Virus record (IMG/VR): IMGVR_UViG_2595698222_000001 | Span: 1-64,000 of that record | Source of the DNA: a virus | Taxonomy: Duplodnaviria; Caudoviricetes | DNA length: 64,000 nt | Strand: one strand, 5' to 3' | Program-made: the position numbers and the translations under genes | The notes under the pieces: generated by a model | What the model saw: the letters and a program-made list of their open reading frames with translations, nothing else | Database searches by the model: none | What the model was told of the DNA's origin: nothing | In this document: positions 18,214 through 41,762 of the stretch, one piece after another | Layout: the number at the start of each line of letters is the position of its first letter | Numbering within the stretch: the first letter of the stretch is position 1

Positions 18214-18900
18214 CTTAATATTGATAGTTAGTAAGGGTAGTGGTATTCTATTCATGAAGATTATTTATATAATAGGAGGGTGAAGCGATTGGAGCAAATT
18301 AAATTACAACTTCCTAAAACATACCATAAAGAAGCCGCAGAAGATTATAAGAATGAATTCTTCAAATATAATGAATACGTTATTAACGGAAGTGCATTAT
18401 TTGACCAAATGAAATATGACCAATGGCTTGTTAACACCACAAATAACAGCAAAGAAAGTACAGTAAGGGCAGATTGGGTGGTAGCAAGTACATTTTTTGC
18501 AGTCAGACAGTGCGATAATAAAATTATTGGAATGATAGATATACGCCATACTTTAAATAACGATTTTTTAATGCAATATGGTGGCCATATAGGTTATTCA
18601 GTGAGACCAAGTGAAAGAAAAAAGGGCTATGCAACAGCAATGGTTCGGCTGGGGCTTAATTATGCAAAAACACTTGGCCTTAATAAAGTGATGTTGGGGT
18701 GTTATGCAGATAACGTTCCCTCAATACAAACCATTAAAAAGTGTGGCGGTATATTGACTGAAATAAAACCATATTTGGATGGAAAAACAATTCATATATA
18801 TTGGATTTATTTACAGTAATTCTACTAAATGATTACAATATGATTGAATTAAATATGTTAAGAAAACTACTAACTATCAGTATTAAGCTGGTAGTTTTTT
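18214..18900 (+). mobile_element. Framed moron cassette 1 (promoter plus inverted repeat, gene, inverted repeat plus terminator)
   Basis: CTTAATATTGATAGTTAGTA (18214-18233) against TACTAACTATCAGTATTAAG (18868-18887), 19/20 inverted match. TTGATA-17-TATTCT promoter. Hairpin plus T-tract at 18872-18900. Confidence 0.75.
18280..18819 (+). CDS. GNAT-family acetyltransferase (moron)
   Basis: GGHIGYSVRPSERKKGYAT...DNVPSIQTIKKCGG. Confidence 0.92.
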   Translation: MKRLEQIKLQLPKTYHKEAAEDYKNEFFKYNEYVINGSALFDQMKYDQWLVNTTNNSKESTVRADWVVASTFFAVRQCDNKIIGMIDIRHTLNNDFLMQYGGHIGYSVRPSERKKGYATAMVRLGLNYAKTLGLNKVMLGCYADNVPSIQTIKKCGGILTEIKPYLDGKTIHIYWIYLQ

Positions 18901-18945
18901 AGTGCAGAAATTTAATTAAGCAAACTGAAATTTAATGGAGGCTAT

Positions 18946-19464
18946 ATGTTAGATAACAGGTTAAAAGTTTTTGTTGCAGTGTGCGAAACCCGCGGATATC
19001 AAAAGGCTGCTGATAAATTATTTATCTCACAGCCTGCGGTATCACATCACATACGAAACTTAGAGCAGGAAATGGGAACAAAACTCATTGTATTTAGAAA
19101 AGGGCAGCTTAAGTTAATGCAACTCACGAAACACGGAGAAATATTATTTAAGTATTGCAAGCAGGTAGTTAAACAAGATAAGCAATTACAAGAGGAATTA
19201 GCTCAGAACAAGAATTATGTTCCCCCATTTGAGCCATATAAAATTATGACAAAATTATATGAGGATCCTGACTACATAATGGGGAAAAGGCTAAGTGAGT
19301 TGGTATCATCTATTGCCGAAACTAGATCCGAAAGGGATCGTCTATATAATGCTTTACGTGATGATCCAGATGTAAGGAAGAAAGTATTTGATAGCGGTCA
19401 GCGTAGATTTTATTATTATCACACAGACGATGTTAAAAAGTATATTGAAGATATGCGAATCTGA
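18946..19464 (+). CDS. LysR-type HTH fused to a non-LysR C-terminus
   Basis: AADKLFISQPAVSHHIRNLEQEMG; no substrate-binding domain. Confidence 0.8.
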   Translation: MLDNRLKVFVAVCETRGYQKAADKLFISQPAVSHHIRNLEQEMGTKLIVFRKGQLKLMQLTKHGEILFKYCKQVVKQDKQLQEELAQNKNYVPPFEPYKIMTKLYEDPDYIMGKRLSELVSSIAETRSERDRLYNALRDDPDVRKKVFDSGQRRFYYYHTDDVKKYIEDMRI

Positions 19465-19487
19465 TATTTTGCATAGTTGAAAATCAT

Positions 19488-19540
19488 TGAAAGGAGACCG
19501 GAGCGGTGGCCACCGTGACAGGATATCCTGGCTTCTTTCA
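19488..19540 (+). promoter_or_regulatory. SD-sequestering leader motif, copy A
   Basis: TGAAAGGAG...CGGTGGCCACCG...CAGGATATCCTG-G-CTTCTTTCA, then ATG at 19547. Confidence 0.65.
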
Positions 19541-19546
19541 CAAATA

Positions 19547-22054
19547 ATGGATTATTTAGAGTTTTTGAAAACAAAGATTGAAATTGCAACGGATACAGGA
19601 TTCGCAGTAGAACGGAGCACTATCAATAAGGCATTGAAATTTCATCAGGGTGACGCTGTCGCATGGGCTTTGAAAGGTGGTTGCCGAGCGTTATTTGAAA
19701 GCTTTGGCCTTGGAAAGACAGTTCAGGAAATAGAATTCTGCTATCAGGTAATTAGGAAGTTTGGAGGAAAAGCTCTCATAGTTTGTCCATTGGGTGTTAA
19801 ACAGGAATTCATAAGGGACGCGCAGAGTATTCTCGGTTATGAAAAGCCCATATATGTTAGAAACATGGAAGAGGTTAAGGCTGCAGAAGCTGGTATCCTC
19901 ATTACCAACTACGAACGAGTACGTGATGGAGATATAGACCCCAGTTATTTCACGGCAACTTCTCTTGATGAAGCCAGTGTTCTTAGGAGTTTTGGAAGCA
20001 AGACTTATCAAACCTTCCTGGATAAATTCAAAGAGGTTCCTTACAAACTTGTGGCTACAGCCACGCCAAGTCCGAACAAATATAAAGAGCTGATTCACTA
20101 CGCCGGATATTTGGGAGTTATGGATACCGGCCAGGCATTGACGAGATTCTTTCAGCGAGATTCTACAAAAGCCAATAATTTAACTTTATATTCGAACATG
20201 GAAGATGAGTTCTGGCTTTGGGTAAGCAGCTGGGCGCTATTCATTACAAAGCCTTCAGATATAAACCTGGATTATTCAGATGATGGATATATTCTTCCGC
20301 CTTTAGATGTAAGGTGGCATGAACTTCCGGTAAATTACGGCGATACTGCAGATAGAGATGGCCAGTTTCAGTTATTTAATGAAGCAGCTGACGGCCTGAA
20401 AGAAGCAGCACAGGTGAAACGAGAAAGTATTGACCTAAGAACAGCAAAGATGAAAGAGATCCTTGAGTCTGACCCGGAGGATCATTTTATTATATGGCAT
20501 GACCTGGAAGCAGAGAGACTGGCAATTAAGAAAGCAGTGCCGGGTGTCGTGGATATTTACGGTTCCCAGGATTATGAAATTCGGGAACAAAGGGTTATTG
20601 ACTTTTCAGAGGGTTGTTGTCAGTATTTTGCAACAAAAAAAGAGTTATCAGGATCTGGCTGCAATTTTCAAAAGCATTGTCATAGGGAAATATTCCTGGG
20701 GATTGATTACGAATTTAATGATTTTATTCAGGCCATACATAGGTGCTATCGCTTCCTGCAAAAGGAGCCAGTTATCATTGATATTATCTACATGGAAAAT
20801 GAGAGAGAAATCAAAGATGTGTTACTGGAAAAGTGGAAGAATCATAATCACATGGTAGAAAAAATGATTGAGATTGTTAGAAAGTACGGATTGTCGGCGG
20901 CTGGGAAAGAAAAACGCTTAGAGCGGAAGATGGGAGTTGAAACAGTGAAGGTCAAGGGAAGTAAGTATACAGCAGTTAATGATGATTGCGTAGAAGAAAC
21001 AAGGCGTATGGAAAGTGATAGCGTTGGCCTGATTCATACATCAATACCTTTTGGAAACCATTATGAATATTCGGCCAATTATAATGACTTTGGGCATAAT
21101 CAGGATACGGAAAGATTCTTTGAGCAGATGGACTTCCTTACACCTGAACTTCTTAGGATCCTGCAGCCGGGAAGAGTGGCGGCAATACATGTTAAGGATC
21201 GTATCCTTTTCGGAAACGCTACAGGAACAGGAATGCCCACGGTAGAACCTTTTCATTCAGATTGTATTAGTCATTATATTAAACATGGATTTCAGTATTT
21301 TGGCATGATTACTATTGTTACTGATGTGGTAAGGGAAAATAATCAGACCTATCGGCTGGGCTGGACGGAGCAATGCAAAGATGGAAGCAAAATGGGAGTG
21401 GGTTGTCCAGAATATATTTTACTCTTTAGAAAACTACCTACTGACAGATCAACGGCTTATGCAGACGTACCTGTGAAAAAGACCAAAGAAGATTATACCA
21501 GGGCTCAATGGCAGATAGACGCTCACGGATTCTGGAGATCTTCGGGTAATCGCCTTATTAGAAAAGAAGAGTTAGAAAATGTTTCGGTAAAGAATCTTCA
21601 GGCTGTTTACCGGAAATATAGCAGGGATCATGTTTATGACTATAAAGAGCATGTAGAGCTGGCCAAGAAACTTGATACGGAAGATAAGCTCCCAGCTACA
21701 TTTATGGTGGTTGCGCCGGGAAGCTGGACATGGGAAGTATGGGACGATATCAACCGCATGAGAACTTTGAATACCAGTCAGAGCCGGAGAAGAGCGCAAC
21801 TCCATGTATGTCCTTTACAGCTGGATATAGTGGAACGAATTATCAACAGATATTCCAACGAAGGTGACCTTGTAGCAGATCCATTTGCCGGGCTTATGAC
21901 GATCCCTATGACAGCCGTTAAGATGGGTAGGCTCGGATATGGAATAGAATTGAATCCGGATTATTTCAGAGATGGCGTTGGGTACCTGCAGGCGGCAGAA
22001 GAAGATGTGGATTCCCCGACACTATTTGATTTTATGCCAGAGATAATAGCATAA
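19547..22054 (+). CDS. SNF2-like helicase fused to an N4/N6 DNA methyltransferase
   Basis: GLGKT, LDEAS, TATP; TSIPF and ADPFAG motifs. Confidence 0.88.
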   Translation: MDYLEFLKTKIEIATDTGFAVERSTINKALKFHQGDAVAWALKGGCRALFESFGLGKTVQEIEFCYQVIRKFGGKALIVCPLGVKQEFIRDAQSILGYEKPIYVRNMEEVKAAEAGILITNYERVRDGDIDPSYFTATSLDEASVLRSFGSKTYQTFLDKFKEVPYKLVATATPSPNKYKELIHYAGYLGVMDTGQALTRFFQRDSTKANNLTLYSNMEDEFWLWVSSWALFITKPSDINLDYSDDGYILPPLDVRWHELPVNYGDTADRDGQFQLFNEAADGLKEAAQVKRESIDLRTAKMKEILESDPEDHFIIWHDLEAERLAIKKAVPGVVDIYGSQDYEIREQRVIDFSEGCCQYFATKKELSGSGCNFQKHCHREIFLGIDYEFNDFIQAIHRCYRFLQKEPVIIDIIYMENEREIKDVLLEKWKNHNHMVEKMIEIVRKYGLSAAGKEKRLERKMGVETVKVKGSKYTAVNDDCVEETRRMESDSVGLIHTSIPFGNHYEYSANYNDFGHNQDTERFFEQMDFLTPELLRILQPGRVAAIHVKDRILFGNATGTGMPTVEPFHSDCISHYIKHGFQYFGMITIVTDVVRENNQTYRLGWTEQCKDGSKMGVGCPEYILLFRKLPTDRSTAYADVPVKKTKEDYTRAQWQIDAHGFWRSSGNRLIRKEELENVSVKNLQAVYRKYSRDHVYDYKEHVELAKKLDTEDKLPATFMVVAPGSWTWEVWDDINRMRTLNTSQSRRRAQLHVCPLQLDIVERIINRYSNEGDLVADPFAGLMTIPMTAVKMGRLGYGIELNPDYFRDGVGYLQAAEEDVDSPTLFDFMPEIIA

Positions 22055-22370
22055 GGCAAAGCAAGAGAAGAAAGGAGATAAAAATTTGAAGAATTGGGTT
22101 AAATGGGTGAGTGTAGCCGTGGTCGTATTGTTCGGAATTGGTTTTACAGAATCTCCAATGTGTTTGTGGGCGTTTTTCATTCCGTTTTTAAGTGATTGCT
22201 TTTCATAGACAGGAACGGAGGCAAAGTCTTGAAATATGAATTACATATGCTTTTACGAAAGATAATAATGAGGTGATACGGAAAAGATTGCAATTCGTGT
22301 AAGCATTATGATGGAAGCTTTGGTGACGAGAGCTGCTTTCCCTGTGAACGAAGCATAAAGGCGGTGGGAT

Positions 22371-22745
22371 ATGAACGAAAGTAGAAAATATACGATTTAC
22401 GCCGTAGATTTTGACGGCACACTTGTAGAAAGCGTCTGGCCGGGAATCGGTGAGCCGAATCAGGCATTGATTAATCATTTGATTAAAAGACGTAGAGGGG
22501 GAAACAAAGTAATTCTTTGGACATGCCGCTGTGGCAGCCGCTTGGAAGAAGCTGTTTCATGGTGCAGGAATTATGACCTGGAATTTGACGCTGTGAACGA
22601 GAACTTATCTGAAATGGTAAAGTTGTTCGGAAACGATTCACGAAAGATATTCGCTGATGTTTACATAGACGATAAGGCCAAGGTTAAGGCCAAGTATCGC
22701 ATTCCTTATCAAGGTGGTGAAGATGATGGAAGAACGCGATCTTAG
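22371..22745 (+). CDS. HAD-superfamily hydrolase
   Basis: AVDFDGTL, LWTCR, K...YIDDK. Confidence 0.85.
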   Translation: MNESRKYTIYAVDFDGTLVESVWPGIGEPNQALINHLIKRRRGGNKVILWTCRCGSRLEEAVSWCRNYDLEFDAVNENLSEMVKLFGNDSRKIFADVYIDDKAKVKAKYRIPYQGGEDDGRTRS

Positions 22746-23133
22746 AAAGTACTGGTCCGCCTATACGGACGCATGGAAACTAATGAAAAATCGTCAGATG
22801 GTCAAGCAGGAGCATGTGGCACAGATGATAAAGAAGCATGGGAATCCTGTCATGAGCCGGCTGTTTTGCCTGGTTGTCTGGCAGGAGATTAAGCGGATTA
22901 ATTCCGGGGGGGCTCCTCTTCAGGACAAGCAGTATGAAGAATGTCTTACCGGAGCATGGAAGCTGTTTAAGCAGTACAGCGATCCGAATGATACAGAAGA
23001 ATACTGGAATGGCCTGGTTGATATGATAGGAGCCATGTCCAAAGAATATGGTAATTGCAGCTTTATAAGTAATGTCCTGATCCATGTAACGCTAGAAGAA
23101 CTTGAGCGGATTTGGAGATCTAAAAAGCAATAA
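22714..23133 (+). CDS. Hypothetical protein with an internal duplication
   Basis: TDAWKLMK and TGAWKLFK repeats. Confidence 0.55.
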   Translation: MVKMMEERDLRKYWSAYTDAWKLMKNRQMVKQEHVAQMIKKHGNPVMSRLFCLVVWQEIKRINSGGAPLQDKQYEECLTGAWKLFKQYSDPNDTEEYWNGLVDMIGAMSKEYGNCSFISNVLIHVTLEELERIWRSKKQ

Positions 23134-23137
23134 AAAG

Positions 23138-23186
23138 TGAAAGGAGCCGACCTCCTGCAGGGGTAACGCTATAGCGGGTCCTTTTG
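23138..23186 (+). promoter_or_regulatory. SD-sequestering leader motif, copy B
   Basis: TGAAAGGAGCC...CCTGCAGG...CGCTATAGCG-GGTCCTTTTG, then ATG at 23192. Confidence 0.6.
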
Positions 23187-23191
23187 AGAAT

Positions 23192-24934
23192 ATGAGAGAT
23201 TTATTAATAGATTGCTTTGCCGGAGGCGGTGGGGCAAGCGTTGGGATGGAAATGGCTTTGGGCCGTCCGGTTGATATTGCTATCAATCATAATCCACAAG
23301 CTATCAGGATGCACAGAACGAATCACCCTGATACGCTTCATTTGACAGAGGATATCTTCAAGGTAGACCTGCAGAAATATGTAAAAGGCCGTCATGTAGC
23401 TTTAATGTGGGCCAGCCCAGACTGTACCAGTCATAGCAAGGCAAAAGGCGGTAAGCCGCGAGAGAAAGGGCTTAGAATTCTTCCATGGGCAGTATATAAA
23501 CATGCGAAAGCAATTCTGCCTGATGTGATCCTGATGGAGAATGTTGAAGAGATCCAGCAGTGGGGACCCTTGGATAATGAGGGTTATCCAATAAAGGAGC
23601 GTAAGGGAGAGGATTATCAAAGGTTTATTACAGCCATGAAGTCACTGGGTTACATATTTGATAGTCGGGAACTGATAGCAGCCGATTACGGAGCTCCCAC
23701 CACAAGAAAAAGATGGTATGCAGTATTTCGGAGAGATGGAAAGCCGATTGTCTGGCCGGAACCGACTCATAACAAAAATGGTACTGATGGGTTAAAGAGA
23801 TGGGAACCTATATGGAAATATCTTGAATTAACGGATTTAGGAAAATCTATATTTGGCAGAAAGAAGCCACTGGCAGATAAGACGATGAACCGGATCGCCA
23901 GGGGATTGGATAAATTTGTTTTTAATTGCCCGGAACCGTTTATTGTTCAGGTGAATCATGGGGGAGATAACTTCCGGGGACAGAGCATACATGAGCCTAT
24001 GCCTACCATAACGCAGAAGCATGGCTTTGGAACTGTGACACCGTACATTATGCAGATAGGGCAGACTGGATTTTGTACAGAACGCAATCGTTCAGTTGAA
24101 GATCCATTGAGTACAGTAGTTACAAACAACGAACATTGCCTGATATCGCCAGTTATCACACCCTTCATAGAGAAGTCTTATGGAGGTAATTACAAAGGAG
24201 CGGGCAGTGGCATGGATGAGCCAGTACATACTATCACTACGGTTGATCATAACCATGTTGTTGCACCACTTTTGATTCAGTATCATTCCGAAACATCAAA
24301 ATCTGATGTGAGAGGGCAGTCAGTTGACGTACCGATAATGACACTGGATACCAGTAACCGTTATGGCTTGGTGGCGGCTTTCCTTACAAAATTCTATAAA
24401 ACGGGAATAGGTCAGCCTTTATGGGAACCGATACATACAATCACAACCAGTCCTGGGCATTTTGGACAAGTCAGTATTCTTGCAATCAGCAAGGAAGAAC
24501 TGTTGAAGAATGGTGTTGATGAAGAAACAGCACAGAAATGCACTTGGGTAAGCCAGTTTATCATTAAGTACTACGGTGGTGATGTGTCTGGTGTAAGTTT
24601 GGAAGAACCACTTCATACTATTGTGACAAAAGACAGATTTGCTTTGGTTACGGTCCTTGGTAGTGAATATGTGATTCTGGATATCTTTCTACGTATGTTG
24701 AAGGCCGAACCAGAATTGAAATTGGGACAGGGATTCCCAGAGGATTATATTATTGACCATGATTACGAAGGGAAAAAGTACCCAGTATCTGAACAGGTGG
24801 CCCGTATTGGAAACAGCGTTGTTCCCATCGTGGCTAAAGCGTTGGTTGTGGCGAATTGCTCATATCTGAAAATCGGAGAGCGAATGCCAAACATGAGGAT
24901 TGATGATAGCCAGGAGCAGCTTAGATTTGCCTGA
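23192..24934 (+). CDS. C5-cytosine DNA methyltransferase with a long repeated variable region
   Basis: FAGGGG, SPDC, ENV, R-R, GNSV; repeated EP(M/V/I/L)HTITT units. Confidence 0.92.
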   Translation: MRDLLIDCFAGGGGASVGMEMALGRPVDIAINHNPQAIRMHRTNHPDTLHLTEDIFKVDLQKYVKGRHVALMWASPDCTSHSKAKGGKPREKGLRILPWAVYKHAKAILPDVILMENVEEIQQWGPLDNEGYPIKERKGEDYQRFITAMKSLGYIFDSRELIAADYGAPTTRKRWYAVFRRDGKPIVWPEPTHNKNGTDGLKRWEPIWKYLELTDLGKSIFGRKKPLADKTMNRIARGLDKFVFNCPEPFIVQVNHGGDNFRGQSIHEPMPTITQKHGFGTVTPYIMQIGQTGFCTERNRSVEDPLSTVVTNNEHCLISPVITPFIEKSYGGNYKGAGSGMDEPVHTITTVDHNHVVAPLLIQYHSETSKSDVRGQSVDVPIMTLDTSNRYGLVAAFLTKFYKTGIGQPLWEPIHTITTSPGHFGQVSILAISKEELLKNGVDEETAQKCTWVSQFIIKYYGGDVSGVSLEEPLHTIVTKDRFALVTVLGSEYVILDIFLRMLKAEPELKLGQGFPEDYIIDHDYEGKKYPVSEQVARIGNSVVPIVAKALVVANCSYLKIGERMPNMRIDDSQEQLRFA

Positions 24935-24971
24935 TATAACGTAGAATTAAAGATTTATTGTTCCTTGATAA

Positions 24972-25574
24972 TTGAATATTGATAGTTGGAATGGTATAAT
25001 TCCTTTATCACTAAAGATGGGGGGAGTATTATGGATTGGAATATATTTTGGGCGGCATTTGGTGCAATAGGGACTACTTTAGGTTCTTTGATAACAGCAA
25101 GTGCTGTAGTTATTGCAGTTAAACAGTATAAGCAACCTTTGATGAAGATTGTAAAAGTAGTGGTGACTTCGGCTGCTATAGTTGATAATTCAGGAAATTA
25201 TTTAATGTTTTATTGTATAAGCATAAAGAATAGAGGTATAAGAACAGTACAAATTAACTCTATAAATATCAAGGGGAATAAGAAAGTGTTGTGGTTAAAT
25301 AGTACTCAATTTGAATCAGATACTAAAATAAATCTTCCGGTAAAAATCGAGCCAGAAGAAATCATAGACTTTTTGATTGAAGTGGAAAAATTTAGATTGG
25401 AGATAAAAAAAGCTGTTACAAATAAGGTAATCAGGAAGAGGGGTAAATTAGTGGTTTTTGTAACAGATTCTCTTGGCGATAAGTATTATTGTAAAACAAA
25501 TATTAAAATTGCAAGCTTAATAAATTCTCTTTAATGTTTGTAACCAACTATCAATATTCGGTAGTTGGTTTTTT
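24972..25574 (+). mobile_element. Framed moron cassette 2
   Basis: GAATATTGATAGTTGG (24974-24989) against CCAACTATCAATATTC (25544-25559), perfect inverted match. TTGAAT-17-TATAAT promoter. Terminator at 25542-25574. Confidence 0.78.
25031..25534 (+). CDS. Membrane-anchored hypothetical protein (moron)
   Basis: N-terminal hydrophobic helix, low GC, own promoter and terminator. Confidence 0.7.
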   Translation: MDWNIFWAAFGAIGTTLGSLITASAVVIAVKQYKQPLMKIVKVVVTSAAIVDNSGNYLMFYCISIKNRGIRTVQINSINIKGNKKVLWLNSTQFESDTKINLPVKIEPEEIIDFLIEVEKFRLEIKKAVTNKVIRKRGKLVVFVTDSLGDKYYCKTNIKIASLINSL

Positions 25575-25585
25575 GTTGCAAAAAA

Positions 25586-25635
25586 TGAAAGGAGGCTGGA
25601 GCTCCTGCAGGGCAAAGTCATGACGGCTCCTTTCA
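25586..25635 (+). promoter_or_regulatory. SD-sequestering leader motif, copy C
   Basis: TGAAAGGAG...CCTGCAGG...GTCATGAC-GG-CTCCTTTCA, then ATG at 25639. Confidence 0.65.
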
Positions 25636-25638
25636 AAA

Positions 25639-26692
25639 ATGTTTATAAAAGAAGATGATTTGAAACTTAATGAGTGGCAATTTTCACAGCGAAAATATTT
25701 GCCATGGGAAACAAAATTGCAACTGACGAAGACCAGAATACAGGAGTGGTATGATAACTGGGGTGGTCAAGTATATCTCAGTTATTCCGGTGGATTGGAT
25801 AGTACTGTATTGCTTCATCTGATCCGCAAGACTATAGGTGATGATATGCCGGCAGTGTTCTCAAATACAGGCTTGGAGTTCCCCGAAATTGTTCGATTTG
25901 CAAGGAAGGCACCTGGAACTTTTAAGGAGATAGAACCACGTAATAAAGATGGTAAACGCATCACATACAGGGACGTTATTTTGAGCGAAGGATATCCTCT
26001 TGTAAGCAAAGAAACTGCTATGAAAATCAGGAAGTTACGGCACGGGAATTTATCAGATAGATACCGGAATTACTTGCTGAATGGTGATGAAAGGGGCTCT
26101 TTTGGAGTTCTTCCGAAAAAATGGAGATGCCTCCTGAACGCACCTTTTGATACCTCTGAAAAATGTTGTGATGTGATGAAAAAGAAACCATTCATTAAGT
26201 ATACAAAAGAAACTGGCCGGGTTCCGTTCATTGGAACAACGCAAGACGAGGGATTTGTGAGAGCGCGTCTTTATTCACATACAGGTTGTAATGTGTATGA
26301 TGGTAAGACAATCAAACCAGCCTATGGGGTTTTGGACAAAGCAAGACGTATTACGGTATGTCGTTGAGAATGATTTGGAAATATGCTCCGTATACGGTGA
26401 CATTAAGCAATCTCCCCGTGGCAAATATTATCTCACTGGGGAGCAACGGACTGGCTGCATGTTCTGCGCATTTGGAGCCCATTTAGAACCAGAACCTAAC
26501 CGCTTTCAGCGAATGTCAATTACGCACCCAGGATATTATCGTTTATGTTTTAAGCCATTGGAGAGCGGCGGACTAGGAATGAGCGTACCGTTGGACTACC
26601 TTGGAATCCCGTATGAAACCTGGGAATCAGTGGGACAGATGAATTTGGCTGACTACCTGAATGAAGAAAGGAATGGACTATGTGGAAAATAA
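25639..26692 (+). pseudogene. PAPS-reductase-family protein, frameshifted near 26316
   Basis: SYSGGLDS and KCC in ORF 25639-26367. PMGFWTKQD and RTGCMFC continue in another frame (26291-26692). Confidence 0.82.
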
Positions 26693-26892
26693 AAATTGTT
26701 TACAGTGATAAAAGTAAATGCACGTTAACAGGGAAACACAAGGAAATTCCATTAGAACTGGCACGCCATTACTATAACCAGTATGCGGCAGGGAAGAAGT
26801 GTAAAGTTACATACCAGCAATATCCTAAAAAGGATTTTGCAGAAACGGACTTGTATGAGAAGATTGTGGAACTGGAATCCAGTGAGGAATAG
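26680..26892 (+). CDS. Hypothetical phage protein
   Basis: ORF coupled to the upstream gene. Confidence 0.5.
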   Translation: MWKIKIVYSDKSKCTLTGKHKEIPLELARHYYNQYAAGKKCKVTYQQYPKKDFAETDLYEKIVELESSEE

Positions 26893-27236
26893 CTGAAAGT
26901 GCTTGGGGGGACCGGCAAGGTTTCCCCTGCCGGTATGAGTATGAAAAAGCTATGCATCTAAAAATCCAACATTCTTAGGAGCACGTTTGTATTATAGCAG
27001 ATATGAATCAGTTTAGCAGATGTAAAATTTTACCATTTTCAATTAAAGACAAGAAATAGCCGGGGCATAGACCCCGGTAAAAAAACAACTCTAAAAGAAC
27101 ATACATTCGAATGGTGGATAATAAACAAGCGGCAGAGTCACCGACCAAAGTTTTTCTACCGCTTCACGCTTAAGGATATTATAAATCAAACTGTCTCCTT
27201 AAGCAACTAATTTTTTAGTAAAGGAGATTACATATT

Positions 27237-28274
27237 GTGAATGGACAAACTGTTAAAGCACAGGTTATTAATAATATCATTGTTGCCATGGCAGGGCATG
27301 TGGCGAAAGAAGTTTTAGACATTCTTCATCAGGTGGTCATAAAGGAATTTGTTAATGTCAATATGGAGGAGATTACAACTCTTCCGGTAGAATATCAGAA
27401 TGATATGGATCAAAAAAACAAATACATTATTCAGCTTTTCATTGTTAAGAAGAAAATCAAAGATAATACAAAGGAAGCTTACCTTGGTGCGGTAAAACGA
27501 CTAATTACCCTGATTGATAAGCCATTGGATAAAATTGAGGAATCAGATATCAGTTTTTATCTTTCCTGGTATGAGAAGCGAAATGTTAATGTAGGCGGGA
27601 AAAAGAATCAAGCAGTGACAGTGAATAATGAAAGACGGTTCTTATCTGCTTTCTTCACTTGGATGCGGAAGGAAAAGTTAATAGGTGAAAACCCGGTGGA
27701 AGCTACTGATCCGCTGAAAACGGTTCGGAAACCGATTGATTATTTCAAGCCAGAAGAGATGGCGAAGATGAGAGATGCTTGTAAGAAACCAAGGGAGCGC
27801 GCCTTAATAGAAGTGCTACGGAGCACCGGTGCCAGAGTCGGAGAGCTGGTCGAAATTACTATTGATCAGATAGATTGGAGGACTGGAGATATTGTAATTC
27901 TGGGAGAGAAGAATGACAAGTATCAGCCCATCTTCTTAGATGACGAAGCTCGATATTATTACCGGCAGTATCTTGACTCCAGGAGTGATGATAGTCCGTT
28001 TATGTTTCCTCACTGTAGGGAACCTTATGAAAAGCTGTCAACTTCCGGTATCCGGAGCATCTTAAAAACCATTGGTAACCGGGCCAAATTGAAATGCCGG
28101 GTATACCCTCATAAAATGCGTAAGACACTGGGAATGAGTCTTAAAAATAAGGGTGTGGACATTGGTACTATTCAGGAGATTTTGAGGCATTCCAGTCCGT
28201 CGGTGACAGCTATTTATTATGCTCAGTCAACACCGGATACATTAAGAAACGTGAGGGAGAGATGTTCAGCATGA
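27237..28274 (+). CDS. Second tyrosine recombinase (XerC/D-like)
   Basis: STGARVGEL, GEK, YPHKMRKT, LRH, TAIYY. Confidence 0.93.
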   Translation: MNGQTVKAQVINNIIVAMAGHVAKEVLDILHQVVIKEFVNVNMEEITTLPVEYQNDMDQKNKYIIQLFIVKKKIKDNTKEAYLGAVKRLITLIDKPLDKIEESDISFYLSWYEKRNVNVGGKKNQAVTVNNERRFLSAFFTWMRKEKLIGENPVEATDPLKTVRKPIDYFKPEEMAKMRDACKKPRERALIEVLRSTGARVGELVEITIDQIDWRTGDIVILGEKNDKYQPIFLDDEARYYYRQYLDSRSDDSPFMFPHCREPYEKLSTSGIRSILKTIGNRAKLKCRVYPHKMRKTLGMSLKNKGVDIGTIQEILRHSSPSVTAIYYAQSTPDTLRNVRERCSA

Positions 28275-28633
28275 TGAAAAAAACGGTCAAGGAACAATTA
28301 AAGAGTTTGGTAGCGCTTAATGCTGCAATCTCTGAGGCTGGAGAAGAAATACAAGCTATTCAAAAGGAAATTAATACATATGGGTATGATGAAAAATATT
28401 CCTCTGCTTTAAATGATCTGAAGCAGAAAACCATCTACCACCGATATCTAAAAGTAAAAAATTATATAAATTTATATGATAAAATAGAAGCTCTGGAAGA
28501 CGAGCAGGAAAAACGCTTGTTGAGATACCGGTATTTACGAGGCTGGCGTTGGGAGGCTATTGCTGATAAAATGGGATATTCACTTAGGCAAACTTTTAAT
28601 ATACATAAGAAAGCTCTCCAAAACATTGAATAG
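28262..28633 (+). CDS. ArpU/RinA-like transcriptional activator
   Basis: LLRYRYLRGWRWEAIADKMGYSLRQTFNIHKKAL. Followed by GTGCA-N5-GTGCA and TG-n-TATGCT at 28639-28673. Confidence 0.8.
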   Translation: MFSMMKKTVKEQLKSLVALNAAISEAGEEIQAIQKEINTYGYDEKYSSALNDLKQKTIYHRYLKVKNYINLYDKIEALEDEQEKRLLRYRYLRGWRWEAIADKMGYSLRQTFNIHKKALQNIE

Positions 28634-28691
28634 TATTTGTGCATAGAAGTGCAGTTATAATTTATGATATGCTGACCTTAGAAATTAAAAG

Positions 28692-28737
28692 GAAAGGAGG
28701 CGAAGTTTTCCGGATAAAAGCTGCAGCGACTTCTTTC
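28692..28737 (+). promoter_or_regulatory. SD-sequestering leader motif, copy D
   Basis: GAAAGGAG...TCCGGA...GCTGCAGC-GA-CTTCTTTC, then ATG at 28742. Confidence 0.62.
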
Positions 28738-28741
28738 TACA

Positions 28742-29764
28742 ATGAGTTTAACTTTTTTGGACTTTTTTGCGGGCATTGGAGGATTTCGTAGAGGTATGGA
28801 ATTGGCAGGTCATAAATGTATTGGTTTCTGTGAATGGGATAAGTTCGCAGTCATGAGCTACACTTCAATGCATTTGATTACAGAAGATCAAAGGCAGCTC
28901 CTTCTTCAACTTCCAATAAAACATAGGCAAAAAGAAATTTTAAAGGAGGAATATCGGAATGGAGAATGGTATGCAAATGACATCAGAACAGTTAATGTCA
29001 GAGACCTGCCAAAAGCAGATGTATGGTGTTTTGGATTTCCCTGCCAAGACATATCTATCGCCGGGAAAAGACTCGGATTCGCTGGAAAGCGTTCAAGTCT
29101 GTTTTTCACAGTTACAGGACTTATTAAAGACCTTGAAGAAAAAGATAAACCCTCAATGTTATTTATTGAGAACGTTAAAAACTTACTTAGTGTTAATCGA
29201 GGACTTGACTTTGCCAAACTTCTCATTGAGTTGGATGAAATCGGCTACGATGTCGAATGGCAAGTTCTCAATACAAAAGACTTCGGAATTCCACAAAGCC
29301 GAGAAAGAGTGTTCATTATTGGATTTCTTAGAGGAAGAAGCAGAAGAGAAGTATTACCTGTCAGAGGATCAGGTTGCAAAAATAATTTTCCATTATTAAA
29401 GCCTAAGAAGTATGGGGACGGCATATTAATACGGGATGTAAATAAAAAAGGTTATTCTTTAGCCGAAGTGGGAGATAGTATAAGTCTTGCTTTTCTTAAC
29501 AGTAAAACAAAGCGTGGCAGGGTAGGAAAGGGAAAGGTCCATACATTAACAACTGCATGTAATCAGGCAGTTGTATGTGAAAAGGATAGGACCCCAAAGA
29601 TTCGAAAACTAACCCCTCGTGAATGTTTTCGCCTACAAGGTTGGACAGATTATTATTTCGATAAAGCAGCGATAGTTAATAGTGATAACCAACTGTACAA
29701 ACAGGCTGGTAATGGAGTGACAGTGAAGGTAATACAGAACATAGCTACTAAATTTCATCATTAA
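28742..29764 (+). CDS. C5-cytosine DNA methyltransferase (alpha-type polypeptide)
   Basis: FAGIGG, GFPCQDIS, ENV, QSRERVF, RKLTPRECFRLQG, GNGV. Confidence 0.93.
   Translation: MSLTFLDFFAGIGGFRRGMELAGHKCIGFCEWDKFAVMSYTSMHLITEDQRQLLLQLPIKHRQKEILKEEYRNGEWYANDIRTVNVRDLPKADVWCFGFPCQDISIAGKRLGFAGKRSSLFFTVTGLIKDLEEKDKPSMLFIENVKNLLSVNRGLDFAKLLIELDEIGYDVEWQVLNTKDFGIPQSRERVFIIGFLRGRSRREVLPVRGSGCKNNFPLLKPKKYGDGILIRDVNKKGYSLAEVGDSISLAFLNSKTKRGRVGKGKVHTLTTACNQAVVCEKDRTPKIRKLTPRECFRLQGWTDYYFDKAAIVNSDNQLYKQAGNGVTVKVIQNIATKFHH
28959..29399 (+). CDS. Nested +1-frame ORF, probable M.EcoHK31I-beta-like methyltransferase subunit
   Basis: 146 open codons inside the methyltransferase gene, ending WMKSATMSNGKF...ECSLLDFLEEEAEEKYYLSEDQV. 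Confidence 0.6.
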   Translation: MENGMQMTSEQLMSETCQKQMYGVLDFPAKTYLSPGKDSDSLESVQVCFSQLQDLLKTLKKKINPQCYLLRTLKTYLVLIEDLTLPNFSLSWMKSATMSNGKFSIQKTSEFHKAEKECSLLDFLEEEAEEKYYLSEDQVAKIIFHY

Positions 29765-29815
29765 TAGTATTTCTAAAAATTGTTCTATTGAGATTCTCCA
29801 AAACAAGAGGAGGTT

Positions 29816-30577
29816 TTGTATATGAATAGTTTTATTAGCTGGATAGGTGGAAAAAAGTTATTAAGAAAGCAGATTTTAGAGCAGTTTCCGGATCAGACTT
29901 CCTATGGACGTTATATTGAAGTTTTTGGAGGAGCTGGTTGGGTATTATTTTCAAGAGATAAACATGCTCCGTTGGAAGTCTTCAACGATTTGAACGGAGA
30001 ATTGATCAATTTATACCGGGTGGTAAAATATCACCCGGAACCGCTGCAGAAGGAATTGGAATGGCTGCTTATGTCCCGGGAACAGTTCTTTGATGAGTTG
30101 AACCGTAATATCAGAGGTATGACCGACATACAACGAGCCGCCCGGTTCTTCTGCCTGATCAGGGAGAGTTTTGGTACAGATTGTAAATCTTTTAGAGTAA
30201 GTCCGAGAGATATGCAGAAAGCAGTTGATTATCTAAAGGAAGTTTCTGGACGATTAAATCGAGTGGTAATTGAGAACCAGGACTTTGAACGGCTGATTAA
30301 AACGTATGATAGGCCAGACGCATTATTCTATCTGGACCCTCCATATTACGAAGCAGAGAAGTATTATCCGGACCGGTTCAATCCGGAGGATCATGAAAGG
30401 CTGTGTAAATGCCTGAGCAATTTAAAGGGAAGATTCGTTTTATCTTATAACGATTGCCAGCAGATACGTGATTTGTATGAGGGATATACAAGCATTGAAG
30501 TTGACAGAATGGACAATTTAGCGAACAAGGATAGGAGTAGGAGATACAAGGAGTTAATCATAAAGAATTTCGAATAA
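29816..30577 (+). CDS. Dam-family (D12 class) DNA adenine methyltransferase
   Basis: WIGGKK, EVFGGAG, NDLN, YLDPPY, SYND. Confidence 0.93.
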   Translation: MYMNSFISWIGGKKLLRKQILEQFPDQTSYGRYIEVFGGAGWVLFSRDKHAPLEVFNDLNGELINLYRVVKYHPEPLQKELEWLLMSREQFFDELNRNIRGMTDIQRAARFFCLIRESFGTDCKSFRVSPRDMQKAVDYLKEVSGRLNRVVIENQDFERLIKTYDRPDALFYLDPPYYEAEKYYPDRFNPEDHERLCKCLSNLKGRFVLSYNDCQQIRDLYEGYTSIEVDRMDNLANKDRSRRYKELIIKNFE

Positions 30578-32848: not shown

Positions 32849-32908
32849 CCTCCACTCTGCATTTACCAGGGCTTGTGACCTGCGGAACTTGTCCGGCTGC
32901 ATTAGAGG
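32849..32908 (-). ncRNA. Twister self-cleaving ribozyme (type P1)
   Basis: Minus strand reads CCUC UAA UGCA GC CGGA-caagu-UCCG CAGG UCACAAGC CCUG guaaa UGCA GA GUG GAGG. All of P1-P4 pair, and both pseudoknots (CAC/GUG and GC/GC) are present. Confidence 0.9.
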
Positions 32909-38134: not shown

Positions 38135-38560
38135 ATGAAAGATTATAAGATTTTTATAAACATAACAAAAGAGGTTTTAGATTCCGTGAAACCAGGTGAT
38201 TTAGTAAAAGTCAACGATTGGAAAAAACCGTTGAAGGTAATTGCTGTCTCTGATAATTATTTTGTGATGGCAAGGAAATTGTTTGGAGAATGGGAGTATT
38301 CGGTTTGTGAAAAGAAACCTTGGGGTGGAATAAGATATAACGCAATGATTGGCGGCAAATTTCATATTGGTACAGATGGTTGGGTATTTGGTTCTCCGAC
38401 ATGGATTGATTTTGATTGCGAGGGATATGACTTTGATAATTTGGAAGCGTCCCAAGCTTACATAAACTCATTTGAGTTATCAGAGGATAACAGGGATCAT
38501 TCTTTTATTTCTCCACGCAATGCCGTGCCGATAGCCAGTATTTATATTAAGTCAAACTAA
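38135..38560 (+). CDS. Hypothetical protein
   Basis: RBS AAGGAG abuts the right end of unit 1. Confidence 0.6.
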   Translation: MKDYKIFINITKEVLDSVKPGDLVKVNDWKKPLKVIAVSDNYFVMARKLFGEWEYSVCEKKPWGGIRYNAMIGGKFHIGTDGWVFGSPTWIDFDCEGYDFDNLEASQAYINSFELSEDNRDHSFISPRNAVPIASIYIKSN

Positions 38561-38666
38561 ACCACGGGTTCCGGCGTGCATGGGAAGCCGGATTAAATGC
38601 GGTCAATCAGGTGGTGGCATCTGGGCGTAAAGCAGCCCGTAACTGAATTTGTGGAGGTAAGTAGAA

Positions 38667-38996
38667 ATGAAAAATTCTAAGGTCATAGCAGCCGATGAAG
38701 AAATAATGAAAACTGCTTCAGATACTTTTTTCAGACAGTTAGTTGAGTGGATGAACAGTGAAAGTATTGAAAACACTGATAGTCTCCAAGATGCTGCTGA
38801 GATTGTCCGGAAAGAATTTCTACAGAAAGGTGACTGGTACAATGCTCTGGTAGATTCCATTGCCCAGTATTTGAGAACCATTCCAGCCAATAAAGGGTTA
38901 TACAACGTTGCAGAGGAGCTTGCTGATCGTATTATCGGAATAGAAAATTTGGAAGGAGATATCCATGGACAAGAAAGAATTGGCAAGGCTCATTGA
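38667..38996 (+). CDS. Hypothetical protein
   Basis: RBS GGAGGT. Confidence 0.55.
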   Translation: MKNSKVIAADEEIMKTASDTFFRQLVEWMNSESIENTDSLQDAAEIVRKEFLQKGDWYNALVDSIAQYLRTIPANKGLYNVAEELADRIIGIENLEGDIHGQERIGKAH

Positions 38997-39357
38997 TGGC
39001 CGGGAATATGGCTATGAACCATTCCGGGACGTTCGGCAGGCAGCGAAAGAATCTGGTCTGGTTATCGTCAGTGGTGCGTCTGATGACTTGATGGAAATTG
39101 ACGGCGCTATTTATGATGAGCAGGGTTGTTTTGAAGGTGGCGTGATATATTTTGACCGTCAAGGTGCATTTGGTAGTGATGGTTATGCTACAAATAAGAT
39201 TGTAGCCCTCTGGTGCGATAGGTCCGCATTAGACGAAAACGGAAAAGTTATTACCTGGACGTATAAAACGGATATTCCCCATGAAACTTTTATGATTTAT
39301 GAGGACGTGGCGCCTTACTGCCGGGGTATAGTATTTAATTTGGCAGATGTGAAATAG
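38965..39357 (+). CDS. Conserved phage protein
   Basis: GLVIVSGASDDLME...WTYKTDIPHETF...YCRGIVF. Confidence 0.65.
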   Translation: MDKKELARLIDGREYGYEPFRDVRQAAKESGLVIVSGASDDLMEIDGAIYDEQGCFEGGVIYFDRQGAFGSDGYATNKIVALWCDRSALDENGKVITWTYKTDIPHETFMIYEDVAPYCRGIVFNLADVK

Positions 39358-39523
39358 AGGTGAGGGATTTGGTATTTCTGAAATGGATTATTACGGTTTG
39401 GCATATATCTATGGCACTATTTATTTGCTCGACTTCTAGAGGGTTGACTTGGGAAAGGAATAAAGCTGCCGTTATTGGGTTTAGTATTATGGCTATTATG
39501 TATGTTCTGGCATTGGTGCCGAT

Positions 39524-39844
39524 TTGGAGGTGATAGATATGATGTGTTTCACAGAGCAGCAGAAACAGGAAATTGTACATACAGGAATGCTTGTTGTTGA
39601 GTTCAAGAGGTCAGTTGTTAAGGCCAGCGAAGCCGTGAAAGAGGTATTTGAGTTTGTGAAGGATGTATTGCTGCAGCTGGCAGATAGAACCACTAAAAGG
39701 CTACAGGTAATTCATCGGGGATATCAGAAATTACCTCTAAAAGAAAAATATAAAGCGGTCCGCAGGCTAGACAAGTGCGGATTCACTGAAAAAGAAATTA
39801 ACCTGATGGTAGGGGGAACATACCACTGCCGGAATAATTGTTAG
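39524..39844 (+). CDS. Hypothetical protein
   Basis: RBS GGAGGTGA before MMCFTE. Confidence 0.5.
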   Translation: MEVIDMMCFTEQQKQEIVHTGMLVVEFKRSVVKASEAVKEVFEFVKDVLLQLADRTTKRLQVIHRGYQKLPLKEKYKAVRRLDKCGFTEKEINLMVGGTYHCRNNC

Positions 39845-39858
39845 GGAGGAGTTAGAAG

Positions 39859-40113
39859 ATGAAAAACGTAATTGCTATTGTGGTAGCTGGTATTAGCTTT
39901 TTATTGTGATTCTACGTTGGTGGCTGGCTCCTGTTTATACAGCCGATTATATCTGCCGGTCATGCTTTTGACGCCGGTACATTAACTGCAACGATTATTG
40001 GCTTGACCATTATCAAGTGTATGCTTGCAGCTGCTGTGGGTTCAATTATCATTTGGCTTGGATGTACAATAGCTGGGTTCATTCAGCTGATTGGAGGGCG
40101 TAAGAGAAAGTGA
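39859..40113 (+). pseudogene. Small membrane protein with an in-frame TGA at 39907
   Basis: MKNVIAIVVAGISFLL*FYVGGWLLF...; the hydrophobic frame continues to a stop at 40113. Confidence 0.6.
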
Positions 40114-40397
40114 TTTTTACATATTTCGGAATTGTCCTGTTCTTTATCACTGAATGGGCGCAATTCAAAAAGGAACGGCCGACATCAGCTTTCAAGGGCC
40201 ATGCGTTGTCCTTTGAGGCTGACAGGTCGAGGCACCCAGTATAGCTGGTGCTAAGCGAAAGATGTGTAACTATAAAATATCTTTGAAATTTTAAATCACT
40301 AAGTGCCAAACTTAAAAATTCTTTCGCAGGCCAATGGCAACGAAGCAATGATGGTAAGTTGCTGAAAAGTCCATCAGAGTGATCAAAATGTACTAAC

Positions 40398-40530
40398 TCC
40401 CCATAGCTGAATGCTTGTCAGGGGCCGTCACTGGCCCGTGGGGATTTGCCCGGAAACGGGCATTGACGTTTTACTATCCTTTCACCTCATAGCTGTTTGC
40501 TGTTAAGGCGGAGCAAATCCGCCGTGAGGT
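40398..40530 (+). ncRNA. Tandem tRNA-like mini-elements separated by a GAAA hairpin
   Basis: Two copies of 7-bp stem, AGCUG-nnu-GCU linker, 5-bp hairpin and closing strand, at 40398-40444 and 40484-40530. Confidence 0.5.
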
Positions 40531-40657
40531 TTTGGAACAGTAAGTCCATGCAGTATGCGTATTGATTCCCATTTTGGAGTGGTCGGTACGCAGCTGGCAG
40601 ACGTGTCACCTGCAAGGCAGTTCCTAAGTGAAGTCAAGGCATTTTGCACATTGGAAA

Positions 40658-41762
40658 TTGAATATTGCTGGTTGGTGAGTTATAATATATTCAACACGAA
40701 TGATTAGGGGGTTTTTATGGACAAGCGATATCAGATATTTATAAGTTCAACATTTACTGATTTGAAAGATGAAAGAAAGGCGATTATTGAAGGACTTTTA
40801 AATGCAAAGTACATACCTTCAGGCATGGAGATGTTTGCAGCTTCTAATGATGAACAATTTAAGTATATAAAGAAAATCATAGATACTTGTGATTATTACG
40901 TACTGATTGTAGGGGCAAGATATGGTTCGATTAATCCTTCCACAGGTAAAAGTTTTACTGAGCAAGAATATGATTATGCTGTTGAAAAGGGCATTCCTGT
41001 ATTAGCTTTTCTTCATGATGATCCATACAATCTTCCAGCTGAAAAACGAGAAGATGAAAAACGAGAATTATTAGACAAATTTAGAGCTAAAGTATCTAGT
41101 GGTCGCTTATGTAAGATGTGGCATACATCGTCAGAACTGATATCGTCAGTAATTATTAGTCTGGGTGAGGAGGTTGCCGACAACCCGCAAATTGGGTGGA
41201 CGAGAGGTAATGTTGAAGATAGTACTATACTATTGTCTCAACTTAATACTCTTAGGCTGGAGAAAGAGAAAGTTGATAAATCGTTTAAAGAACTAAGAAT
41301 AAAATATGATGAATTGACAAGAGATAGGGAAGATTTAGCTTCCGGAAGTGAACATTATGTTATTCTAGGAACAGAAACGATTTACGAATCAGGTGCATAC
41401 GGAAACCGGAGGAGTAGATCAATATCAAGAAGTAAATCCTTGTCATGGGATGAAATATTTTCAGCTGTTGGGCCACACTTATTAGCTCCAAAGACCTTAC
41501 ATGGTTTTAAGTCTGATTTAATGTCATCTATAAACGCTGCATATGATGCTGGGTTTTCGTTTTTGAATGATGACTGTGTTCAAACAATTAAGATACAGTT
41601 ATATGCCCTGGGGCTTATTACTGTTTATCAAGCAAAGCAAACTAGTGGGAGCGTTGTAGAGGGCATTGTTATAACTGAAAAGGGAAAGAAATATTTGACG
41701 GAATTAAAAACAATAAAAAAGTAGAAATTCACCAACCATCAATATTCGGTGGTTGGTTTTTT
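40658..41762 (+). mobile_element. Framed moron cassette 3
   Basis: GAATATTGCTGGTTGGTGA (40660-40678) against TCACCAACCATCAATATTC (41729-41747), 18/19 inverted match. TTGAAT-17-TATAAT promoter. Terminator at 41731-41762. Confidence 0.78.
40717..41724 (+). CDS. DUF4062-domain protein (TIR-like fold, candidate defence effector)
   Basis: YQIFISSTFTDLKDER...GME...CDYYVLIVGARYGS...SFTEQEYDYA. Confidence 0.88.
   Translation: MDKRYQIFISSTFTDLKDERKAIIEGLLNAKYIPSGMEMFAASNDEQFKYIKKIIDTCDYYVLIVGARYGSINPSTGKSFTEQEYDYAVEKGIPVLAFLHDDPYNLPAEKREDEKRELLDKFRAKVSSGRLCKMWHTSSELISSVIISLGEEVADNPQIGWTRGNVEDSTILLSQLNTLRLEKEKVDKSFKELRIKYDELTRDREDLASGSEHYVILGTETIYESGAYGNRRSRSISRSKSLSWDEIFSAVGPHLLAPKTLHGFKSDLMSSINAAYDAGFSFLNDDCVQTIKIQLYALGLITVYQAKQTSGSVVEGIVITEKGKKYLTELKTIKK

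Follow-up and report, generated by a model that had tools for sequence, protein, structure and literature searches.

What kind of element encloses three unrelated genes with the same pair of short sequences, and what do the two ends of that element owe to each other? The question is raised by a 64,000-nucleotide (nt) stretch of DNA from a virus (Duplodnaviria; Caudoviricetes; positions 1 to 64,000 of IMG/VR record IMGVR_UViG_2595698222_000001), hereafter the window, in which genes for a GNAT acetyltransferase, a membrane protein and a DUF4062 protein each start behind one motif and each end with its reverse complement. An initial annotation of the window had proposed either that this arrangement lets transcripts of lytic operons run through the terminator of an inserted gene, or that the repeats are the ends of an integron-like or invertible gene-capture cassette. 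Here we report that the three genes are probably the cargo of one family of self-contained single-gene expression cassettes, that is, morons with a standard frame. Comparison of homologous loci shows that the cassette is a modular, horizontally exchanged promoter-gene-terminator unit, the frames of which persist while cargo and flanks change. The complementarity between promoter and terminator is a new feature with respect to the described cassette systems; we found no description of it in the literature on morons, nor of the Lachnospiraceae frame, the supplementary alignments of the PeSL elements of T4-like phages lying outside this comparison.

Results

Anatomy of the cassettes

The three cassettes, designated C1 (GNAT), C2 (membrane protein) and C3 (DUF4062), share one plan (Table 1). 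At the left stands a frame of 45-105 nt with a sigma-A-type promoter, the -35 element and spacer of which constitute the left inverted repeat (IR-L). A single open reading frame (ORF) of 42-350 aa follows as cargo. At the right, the partner repeat (IR-R) forms the 5' arm and loop of a terminator-like hairpin; after it come the 3' arm, a T-run and a conserved linker extending to the ribosome-binding site of the gene that follows. That each of the three genes follows the motif over a promoter-like site, as initially annotated, was confirmed at all three sites, and the match between the two ends of each cassette was reproduced: IR-L is the reverse complement of the IR-R of its own terminator at 19/20 positions in C1, 16/16 in C2 and 18/19 in C3. 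The promoter and terminator sites of C1-C3 are consensus-scan predictions and give positions rather than functional proof.

Two types of frame can be distinguished. Type I, represented by C1, has a -35 element TTGATA within IR-L and a -10 element TATTCT or TATTAT; type II, represented by C2 and C3, reads TTGAAT-17-TATAAT. The 5' untranslated region (UTR) of C1 extends up to the start codon at 18280, and about 95 nt of its left frame find an 83-86% match in 10 other genomes of the genus. Many type II left frames (e.g. L074, 8985-9020) have the whole 5' UTR in common in spite of unrelated cargo, including a small hairpin, CCGTA..TACGG, ahead of the ribosome-binding site, and first codons ATGCCAATG. 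Searched against Rfam at E values up to 1, the frames in 17800-42200 gave no match.

Table 1. Positions of cassette components and of prophage genes in the window
Feature	Position	Strand	Remarks
C1 motif	18207-18231		
C1 left frame, type I	18176-18279	+	left limit from 99% identical copy in G447
C1 left-frame outer core AAAATTAGAATTT	18178-18190		
C1 IR-L	18214-18233		
C1 promoter-like site TTGATA-17-TATTCT	18221-18249		consensus scan; -35-like 18221-18226, -10-like 18244-18249
C1 cargo: GNAT acetyltransferase, 179 aa	18280-18819	+	Pfam Acetyltransf_3, E 5e-14
C1 right frame	18847-18933	+	IR-R, hairpin, T-run, linker, core
C1 IR-R (5' arm and loop)	18868-18887		
C1 terminator-like hairpin	18872-18896		dG (free energy) -13.4 kcal/mol; T-run 18897-18902
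C1 right core AAACTGAAATTT	18922-18933		
C2 motif	24965-24989		
C2 left frame, type II	24940-25024	+	homology with L053 stops at ~25024
C2 IR-L	24974-24989		
C2 promoter-like site TTGAAT-17-TATAAT	24972-25000		-35-like 24972-24977; TG-extended -10-like 24995-25000
C2 cargo: membrane protein, 167 aa	25031-25534	+	no Pfam family
C2 right frame	25544-25639	+	IR-R, hairpin, T-run, linker, ribosome-binding site of next gene
C2 IR-R	25544-25559		
C2 terminator-like hairpin and T-run	25542-25570		
C3 motif	40651-40675		
C3 left frame, type II	40651-40716	+	
C3 IR-L	40660-40678		
C3 promoter-like site TTGAAT-17-TATAAT	40658-40686		-35-like 40658-40663; -10-like 40681-40686
C3 cargo: DUF4062 protein, 335 aa	40717-41724	+	Pfam DUF4062, E 8e-30
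C3 right frame	41729-41786	+	linker and ribosome-binding site of next gene, start near 41787
C3 IR-R	41729-41747		
C3 terminator-like hairpin and T-run	41731-41757 (hairpin)		T-run 41758-41762
Integrase	1-1263	-	start of window; one large prophage spans the window
RecT-like single-strand annealing protein of prophage	8155-9078	+	PHROG 148, E 3e-58
Second tyrosine recombinase of prophage	at 27237		
Terminase and portal genes of prophage	from 42.3 kb onward		

Complementarity of promoter and terminator

The terminator of the family is a near-perfect palindrome with the centre AATATT, and IR-L corresponds to that centre plus one half. Allowing up to 2 mismatches, the 15-mer AATATTGMTRGTTRG occurs 8 times in the window against 1.82 expected, a number reached in none of 100 shuffles, and six of the eight matches are the three pairs of cassette ends. 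Over the whole genome, a reverse complement situated 60-1500 nt upstream (≤2 mismatches) accompanies 4/8 terminators of the family versus 2/406 other terminator-like hairpins; the upstream complement is specific to the family and does not characterize the terminators of this genome at large. A search for another, unrelated family of terminators with such a complement found none in this genome. At ~2.92 Mb of G000 (~2,920,376, minus strand), a small gene lies between two copies, 456 nt apart, of one hairpin of the GTGGTCACGATGACCAC type (-21.8 kcal/mol), a separate repeat family with a separate architecture.

The two ends of a cassette also fit each other at positions where cassettes differ, as had been noted for C1-C3. 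TTAG/CTAA in C1 corresponds to TTGG/CCAA in C2 and C3, GATAG/CTATC alternates with G.TGG/CCATC, and a variant from another genus (L035) is altered at two places on both ends (19/22). Over 79 cassettes, the duplex formed by a cassette's own ends (mean -26.0) surpasses that formed across cassettes (-22.0) or by shuffled ends (-8.9), and 5000 permutations never attained the observed mean. A downstream reverse complement of at least 15/22, at a distance of 250-1450 nt, was present for 118 of the 155 listed IR-L matches, and an inverted repeat with T-run for 87 of the 122 listed genome matches. When the search was anchored on the terminator, the 111 cases listed comprised 82 with an exact upstream IR-L, 20 with a variant IR-L, 6 with none and 3 at contig ends.

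Distribution and cargo

The initial observation of three cassettes stands, and the frame proved to extend genome-wide and family-wide, a scope that had been overlooked. A profile search of this genome recovered 15 left frames and about 9 clear right frames; since the profile was built from the same copies that it finds, this is a census of the genome and no test. The frames lie at 0.15, 0.88, 0.93, 1.27, 1.32-1.34 (the window), 1.38, 1.42, 1.82 and 4.49 Mb. The 25-mer was found in 17 of 401 genomes (one per genus of the bacterial family) and a control pattern in 2, and the frame is present in at least 113 IMG/VR contigs and in at least 120 stretches of genome records, nearly all of them named Lachnospiraceae. 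These collections were scanned with anchored patterns, the counts being lower bounds and variation at the anchored end being under-sampled. A predicted -10 element lies downstream of IR-L in 96 of 103 unique left frames, and because this -10-like hexamer follows the -35-like hexamer inside the motif, IR-L is placed upstream of the predicted transcription start.

The cargo of 118 cassettes fell into 79 clusters, and the initial description of one conserved frame around unrelated genes is borne out by at least that many. In 78 of 79 cases the cargo ORF is co-oriented with the promoter. Pfam families were sought in 20 of the 79 listed cargo ORFs, in 9 from this genome and in 1 from G443. Defence-like and other cargo included DUF4062, DUF2971 (four times), AbiJ_NTD4, Mrr_cat, a Pycsar-type TIR, NYN, HATPase_c, HicB and CHAP; GNATs, a methyltransferase, a hydrolase, Arr-ms and BacA were further cargo. 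Elsewhere in this genome the frame encloses four more GNATs, a helix-turn-helix (HTH) membrane protein, HD_3, PMSR, BacA and Cupin_2. A second DUF4062 cargo stands within the same kind of frame as C3 (L129), and N-termini similar to that of the C2 membrane protein occur among the cargo of L072 and L120.

A type I cassette of G443 holds the gene for a rifampin ADP-ribosyltransferase (Arr-ms, E 4.5e-50; L492, 514-969, minus strand). Because Arr-ms, BacA and several GNATs are found as cargo, resistance-type genes travel in the frame. The cupin cassette (G000, 1,818,500-1,824,500; L450) occupies a chromosomal hotspot adjoining a gene conserved in 49/49 genomes of the genus. The content between the flanks of this hotspot varies among genomes, with the cassette present in 7 of 12 fetched loci, and no clean empty site was found among the loci compared.

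Exchange and insertion sites

If the frame carries exchangeable genes, cargo should vary at homologous loci, and such variation was seen at a 23-nt anchor, at the C1 junction and at the C2 site. Among the 40 loci with the anchor, 24 have full cassettes of at least 8 lengths, 7 are cargo-less, 6 have a plain related hairpin and 3 have other forms. In the seven cargo-less loci, IR-L takes part in a local hairpin with a nearby complement (-18 to -20 kcal/mol) that has no T-run; a loose pattern for such cargo-less hairpins was mostly unspecific, the extended left frame being present in only 12 instances of three forms, one of them unrelated. One upstream flank (cluster 0, from one group of gut phages) is common to 11 cargo clusters. 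In 86 of 97 pairs with one cargo in common and differing upstream flanks, similarity extends fewer than 10 nt upstream of the motif.

At the C2 site of L053, a contig with a 98% identical second integrase, the frames of C2 enclose an unrelated gene of 83 aa. Breakpoints lie at ~25024 and 25544, and the C2 right frame is 98% identical to L053 3418-3512 despite the different cargo. Positions 18176-18933 of the window, comprising C1, recur at 99% identity in G447, where the left flanks are 93% identical and the right flank is unrelated, and in G443 the junction downstream of C1 holds the Arr-ms cassette instead of the GNAT cassette. Empty C1 sites were also found: in 4/4 homologues the upstream gene ends in AAAATTAGGATTT without a cassette, the ribosome-binding site of the next gene following within a few bases in 2/4 and a short hairpin standing between in 2/4. 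The filled C1 site has the AAAATTAGGATTT core on its left and AAACTGAAATTT on its right, and in cassette arrays the right core leads straight into the next left frame. At the C3 junction, a family terminator was found within the 150 nt before the downstream gene in 0/5 relatives, and in 3 that gene abuts the previous ORF. C1 and C3 both separate genes that neighbour each other in relatives, the arrangement by which morons are recognized. The operon junctions in relatives are tight, and the downstream genes therefore have no room for a promoter of their own.

A 13-nt unit, AAAATAGCAGCTA, stands just upstream of the cassette site in IMG/VR loci (e.g. L074), in two copies in most and about five in L069. 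A conserved linker, GGAGAAAGGAACGAATTATG, extends into the start codon of whichever gene follows the cassette site; in the four loci scanned it occurs once each in L115, L058 and L178 and is absent from L165. To judge from these sequences, the gene following the cassette site may itself be swappable.

The surrounding prophage

C1, C2 and C3 are single-gene units, co-directional with the plus-strand operons of the prophage, which also encodes SSB, an SbcC-like protein, a replication initiator and a DnaB-like helicase (both at 14-17 kb), and several DNA methylases. RNA contigs, assembled at low depth from 4 runs and unreadable as to starts, ends and levels, overlap 18274-18499 and scattered phage genes; in one run search, two RNA runs contained 0.10-0.16 of the sampled words. 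A megablast search of 15000-30000 of the window against the phage collection gave zero matches. An origin of iteron type is suggested by three 44-nt direct repeats with an overlapping palindrome (14302-14413), which fall within the end of the replication-initiator gene, just ahead of the helicase gene. Among small minus-strand genes of the prophage, 32849-32908 (minus strand) matches the type-P1 twister ribozyme with 64 bits (E 1.4e-12), slightly missing the Rfam gathering score of 67.2. Collagen-like GXY repeats at the DNA level (family D1, 12 copies) lie within late genes at 52052-55236, which are probably tail fibre genes.

Discussion

Cassettes as exchangeable units

We propose that the predicted promoter and terminator would insulate the cargo and allow its expression from the prophage, and that cassettes would be exchanged by recombination within the frames, which would serve as regions of homology as proposed for PeSL elements. 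The RecT-like protein is a candidate enzyme for such short-homology exchange, and in the type I subfamily additional insertion may occur at AAWTTARNATTT-like cores. Several points weigh against this cassette explanation. We infer the recombination mechanism from breakpoints alone. The promoter and terminator positions rest on consensus predictions, and promoter-like matches as a class do not exceed shuffles in the cassette regions (30 vs 28; 62 vs 49). Type I cores stand on both sides in only 14/47 unique type I cassettes. Finally, a composite of the PeSL kind is rare, a family terminator being present within 170 nt upstream at 10/298 unique IR-L sites.

The gene-capture reading of the initial annotation holds in part. 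Discrete units, insertion-site-like cores, rare arrays and empty sites agree with it; the repeats as ends of a mobile unit do not. An invertible cassette is contradicted by the absence of inverted copies among the 24 cassettes at the anchored locus and by the nearly uniform orientation of cargo and promoter described above. No recombinase was found consistently near cassettes: recombinase matches in the genome number 12 (tyrosine) and 5 (serine), the majority of cassettes are more than 10 kb from any of them, and no tyrosine recombinase lies within 10 kb of those at 875, 928-936, 1268-1270, 1380, 1421 and 1821 kb. A transposon or a miniature inverted-repeat transposable element (MITE) was rejected, given that the transferred C1 unit (18176-18933) exceeds the repeats (18214-18233 and 18868-18887) and that the flanking repeat is a conserved core, not a variable target-site duplication. 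Likenesses to hix, dif/Xer, a Fur box and an extracytoplasmic function (ECF) promoter, drawn by eye, were rejected on spacing and lack of palindromy.

Explanations of the inverted repeat

As to the complementarity itself, the likeliest single reading, which we hold only tentatively, is that the inverted repeat might be an RNA switch by which upstream transcripts escape the cassette terminator. RNA started at the cassette's own promoter would be devoid of IR-L and would terminate; RNA entering from upstream would carry IR-L, which would pair with IR-R and block the terminator hairpin, and insertion of a cassette would then be non-polar on downstream genes. With slightly greater reserve, the whole frame can be modelled as a polarity-free insertion device, in which IR-L would cancel the terminator across the entire cargo gene with no need for a phage antiterminator protein. 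A bypass of the cassette terminators is required for the downstream phage genes.

Modelled energetics strongly favour the RNA switch. In the three cassettes the IR-L:IR-R duplex reaches -26.1, -26.6 and -32.4 kcal/mol against -13.4, -13.4 and -14.6 for the hairpins. In the equilibrium ensemble of read-through RNA, IR-R pairs with IR-L at a probability of 0.91-0.95 and the terminator forms at ≤0.02. In the cassette's own transcript, a mean of 0.49-0.61 of the IR-R positions (arm and loop) find partners on their 3' side, which is the hairpin arrangement. The two pairings are, in silico, mutually exclusive and share the 5' arm of the terminator. The initial proposal that a cassette's own mRNA starts past the upstream copy and that the copy in read-through mRNA pairs with the terminator fits both the geometry (96/103) and equilibrium folding; the comparative tests do not bear it out. 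Also in favour of the switch are the better fit of a cassette's own ends, the tight operon junctions of relatives without a cassette at the C1 or C3 site, and the cargo-less loci that retain IR-L in a local hairpin.

Those tests, together with the context of the repeats, weigh against the switch. Mismatches in 103 unique IR pairs comprise 92 of G.U type versus 39 of A.C type, a share of 70% that matches the ~72% expected from composition under the assumption that only IR-R drifts, and there is therefore no RNA-specific signal. The presence of the inverted repeat is independent of the orientation of the upstream gene (Fisher odds ratio 0.95, p 1.0), as is its quality (scores 33.6 vs 32.4, p 0.12). 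Neighbours on both sides are co-directional in only 39/64 viral and 42/80 genome cassettes; the ORF orientation calls behind these comparisons were crude. The partners are 250-1450 nt apart with a translated ORF between them, and IR-L is only partly accessible in nascent RNA (mean probability of being unpaired 0.25-0.45). The covariation could come from inheriting both ends as one unit. Judged by their sequences, the frames look young and horizontally spread, and conservation alone is therefore no proof of selection. Moreover, a general phage antiterminator would make a cis-acting switch unnecessary. At one position, an initial impression of 12:1 in favour of G.U-type over A.C-type mismatches was lost on unique pairs (7 vs 5), and terminator-anchored IR-L variants include A-to-G changes opposite U in about 4-6 lineages versus about 8-10 disruptive changes, a hand count of few cases.

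The lack of a G.U bias specific to RNA would equally suit a DNA-level element, namely a recognition or pairing site for recombination such as a palindrome bound by a recombinase or an aid to exchange, which we regard as unlikely. The terminator is a near-perfect palindrome of which IR-L holds the centre and one half, the cassettes are clearly mobile or exchangeable, and cargo-less loci have IR-L back-to-back with its inverted partner. Between C2 and L053, furthermore, the right breakpoint falls at the first base of IR-R and the left one 35 nt past IR-L, 24 nt after the -10 element. Yet the transferred C1 unit extends ~38 nt beyond IR-L and ~46 nt beyond IR-R, so that the repeats are not the ends of the element, no inverted copies were seen among the 24 anchored cassettes and 79 cargo ORFs, and no recombinase is consistently close, homologues of the second integrase being found in 9/233 cassette loci. 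A crossover in the AATATT centre predicts the hybrid empty site TTGANAAYTKAATATTCGGTRGTTGG, which has 0 matches in IMG/VR, and this recombinase model was dropped.

Similar doubt attaches to the complementarity being a historical by-product with no present function, for instance of a promoter that arose from an inverted terminator copy and was inherited together with the other end. The complement of an inverted terminator happens to read TTGATA or TTGAAT, the near identity of frames across many cargos suggests recent spread, mismatch types fit neutral drift, the integrity of the repeat is independent of context, and degenerate copies exist, such as that of the cupin cassette (14/22). Against neutrality, the terminator loop, which is normally free to vary, is conserved like the stems (0.7-0.99 in 37 unique type II frames, a partly circular figure as the set was picked by the inverted-repeat match). 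Lineages with altered arms, moreover, are altered at both ends (L035; the TTAG and TTGG types), and own ends fit better than those of other cassettes.

It is improbable that IR-L and IR-R are operators of one DNA-binding regulator, which would bind the whole palindrome at the 3' end and half of it over the promoter: the palindromic architecture, the position of IR-L over the -35 element and spacer, common for repressors, and TTGAnnn-like heptads read across the left frame would agree, but one regulator leaves unexplained that cassettes in one genome differ in repeat and still match their own partner, and no conserved regulator gene travels with single-gene cassettes.

Implications

With a short signature, hundreds of cassettes for accessory genes can be located in phages and chromosomes of gut Lachnospiraceae. 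Candidate anti-phage genes (DUF4062, DUF2971, AbiJ-like, TIR, Mrr, NYN) and drug-modifying or tolerance-type genes (GNAT, Arr, BacA) abound in their cargo, and the signature offers a handle for cataloguing cassette genes and tracking their movement in the gut. If true, the RNA switch would be a new and very simple regulatory principle, by which morons with strong terminators could sit in essential operons. Defence and resistance-type genes would then be insertable between any two genes of a phage operon with the downstream essential genes kept, which would account for the dissemination of one frame, bearing 79 or more kinds of cargo, among phages and chromosomes of Lachnospiraceae. The switch frame would also be a ready-made insulated part for engineering.

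Comparison with known systems

An integron cassette consists of one gene with a palindromic element at its 3' end; the cargo is diverse, resistance-type genes included, arrays are formed, insertion takes place beside a short core, and the start of each cassette co-varies with its own 3' element. The present cassettes resemble them in the single gene, the 3' palindromic element, the diverse cargo, the co-varying ends and the short insertion core. They differ in that no integron integrase is linked to them, each has a promoter-like site and a terminator-like hairpin, and arrays are rare. The cores, AAWTTARNATTT and AAACTGAWATTT, and the palindrome are likewise unrelated to the GTTRRRY core and attC of integrons, which to our knowledge are essentially absent from the host phylum.

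Promoter-specific read-through is known from lambda nut and HK022 put, which act on RNA polymerase and involve no pairing with the terminator. Known antiterminator strands are parts of a leader and stand tens to ~200 nt away from the terminator. Unlike in attenuators, the partner proposed here would act across a whole translated gene, with the promoter of origin as the only signal. The likeness is that an upstream RNA segment would decide the fate of a downstream intrinsic terminator, read-through being confined to transcripts with that segment, as in the infC leader of B. subtilis (PMC1865079).

Morons, as summarized in PMC3594210 and PMC2839356, are additional genes intercalated between neighbours in related phages; each brings a promoter and an intrinsic terminator, and many benefit the lysogen. 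The cassettes are like the morons of lambdoid and other temperate phages in being an extra gene, with a promoter-like site and a terminator-like hairpin of its own, and unlike them in having one sequence-defined frame across at least 79 cargo clusters.

The closest known kind is the PeSL (promoter-early stem-loop) mobile regulatory cassettes of T4-like phages. According to PMC2839356 and PMC4122927, the orphan genes of variable regions are there bordered by short, conserved motifs with promoter and terminator, at which gene insertion, deletion and replacement take place; the motifs are proposed sites of homologous recombination, and PeSL mini-circles have been demonstrated. In both systems, conserved promoter and stem-loop motifs surround variable orphan genes, breakpoints fall in or near the motifs, and the transcription signals travel along with the gene. 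PeSLs, however, are composite terminator-then-promoter units of lytic T4-like myoviruses of Gram-negative hosts, whereas here a single gene lies between promoter and terminator, and the carriers are temperate Lachnospiraceae phages and chromosomes. The idea of regulatory motifs as vehicles of gene shuffling is hereby extended to temperate phages of Gram-positive anaerobes and to the chromosomes of their hosts, with complementarity of promoter and stem, not described for PeSLs in the passages compared, as the defining feature of the cassettes reported here.

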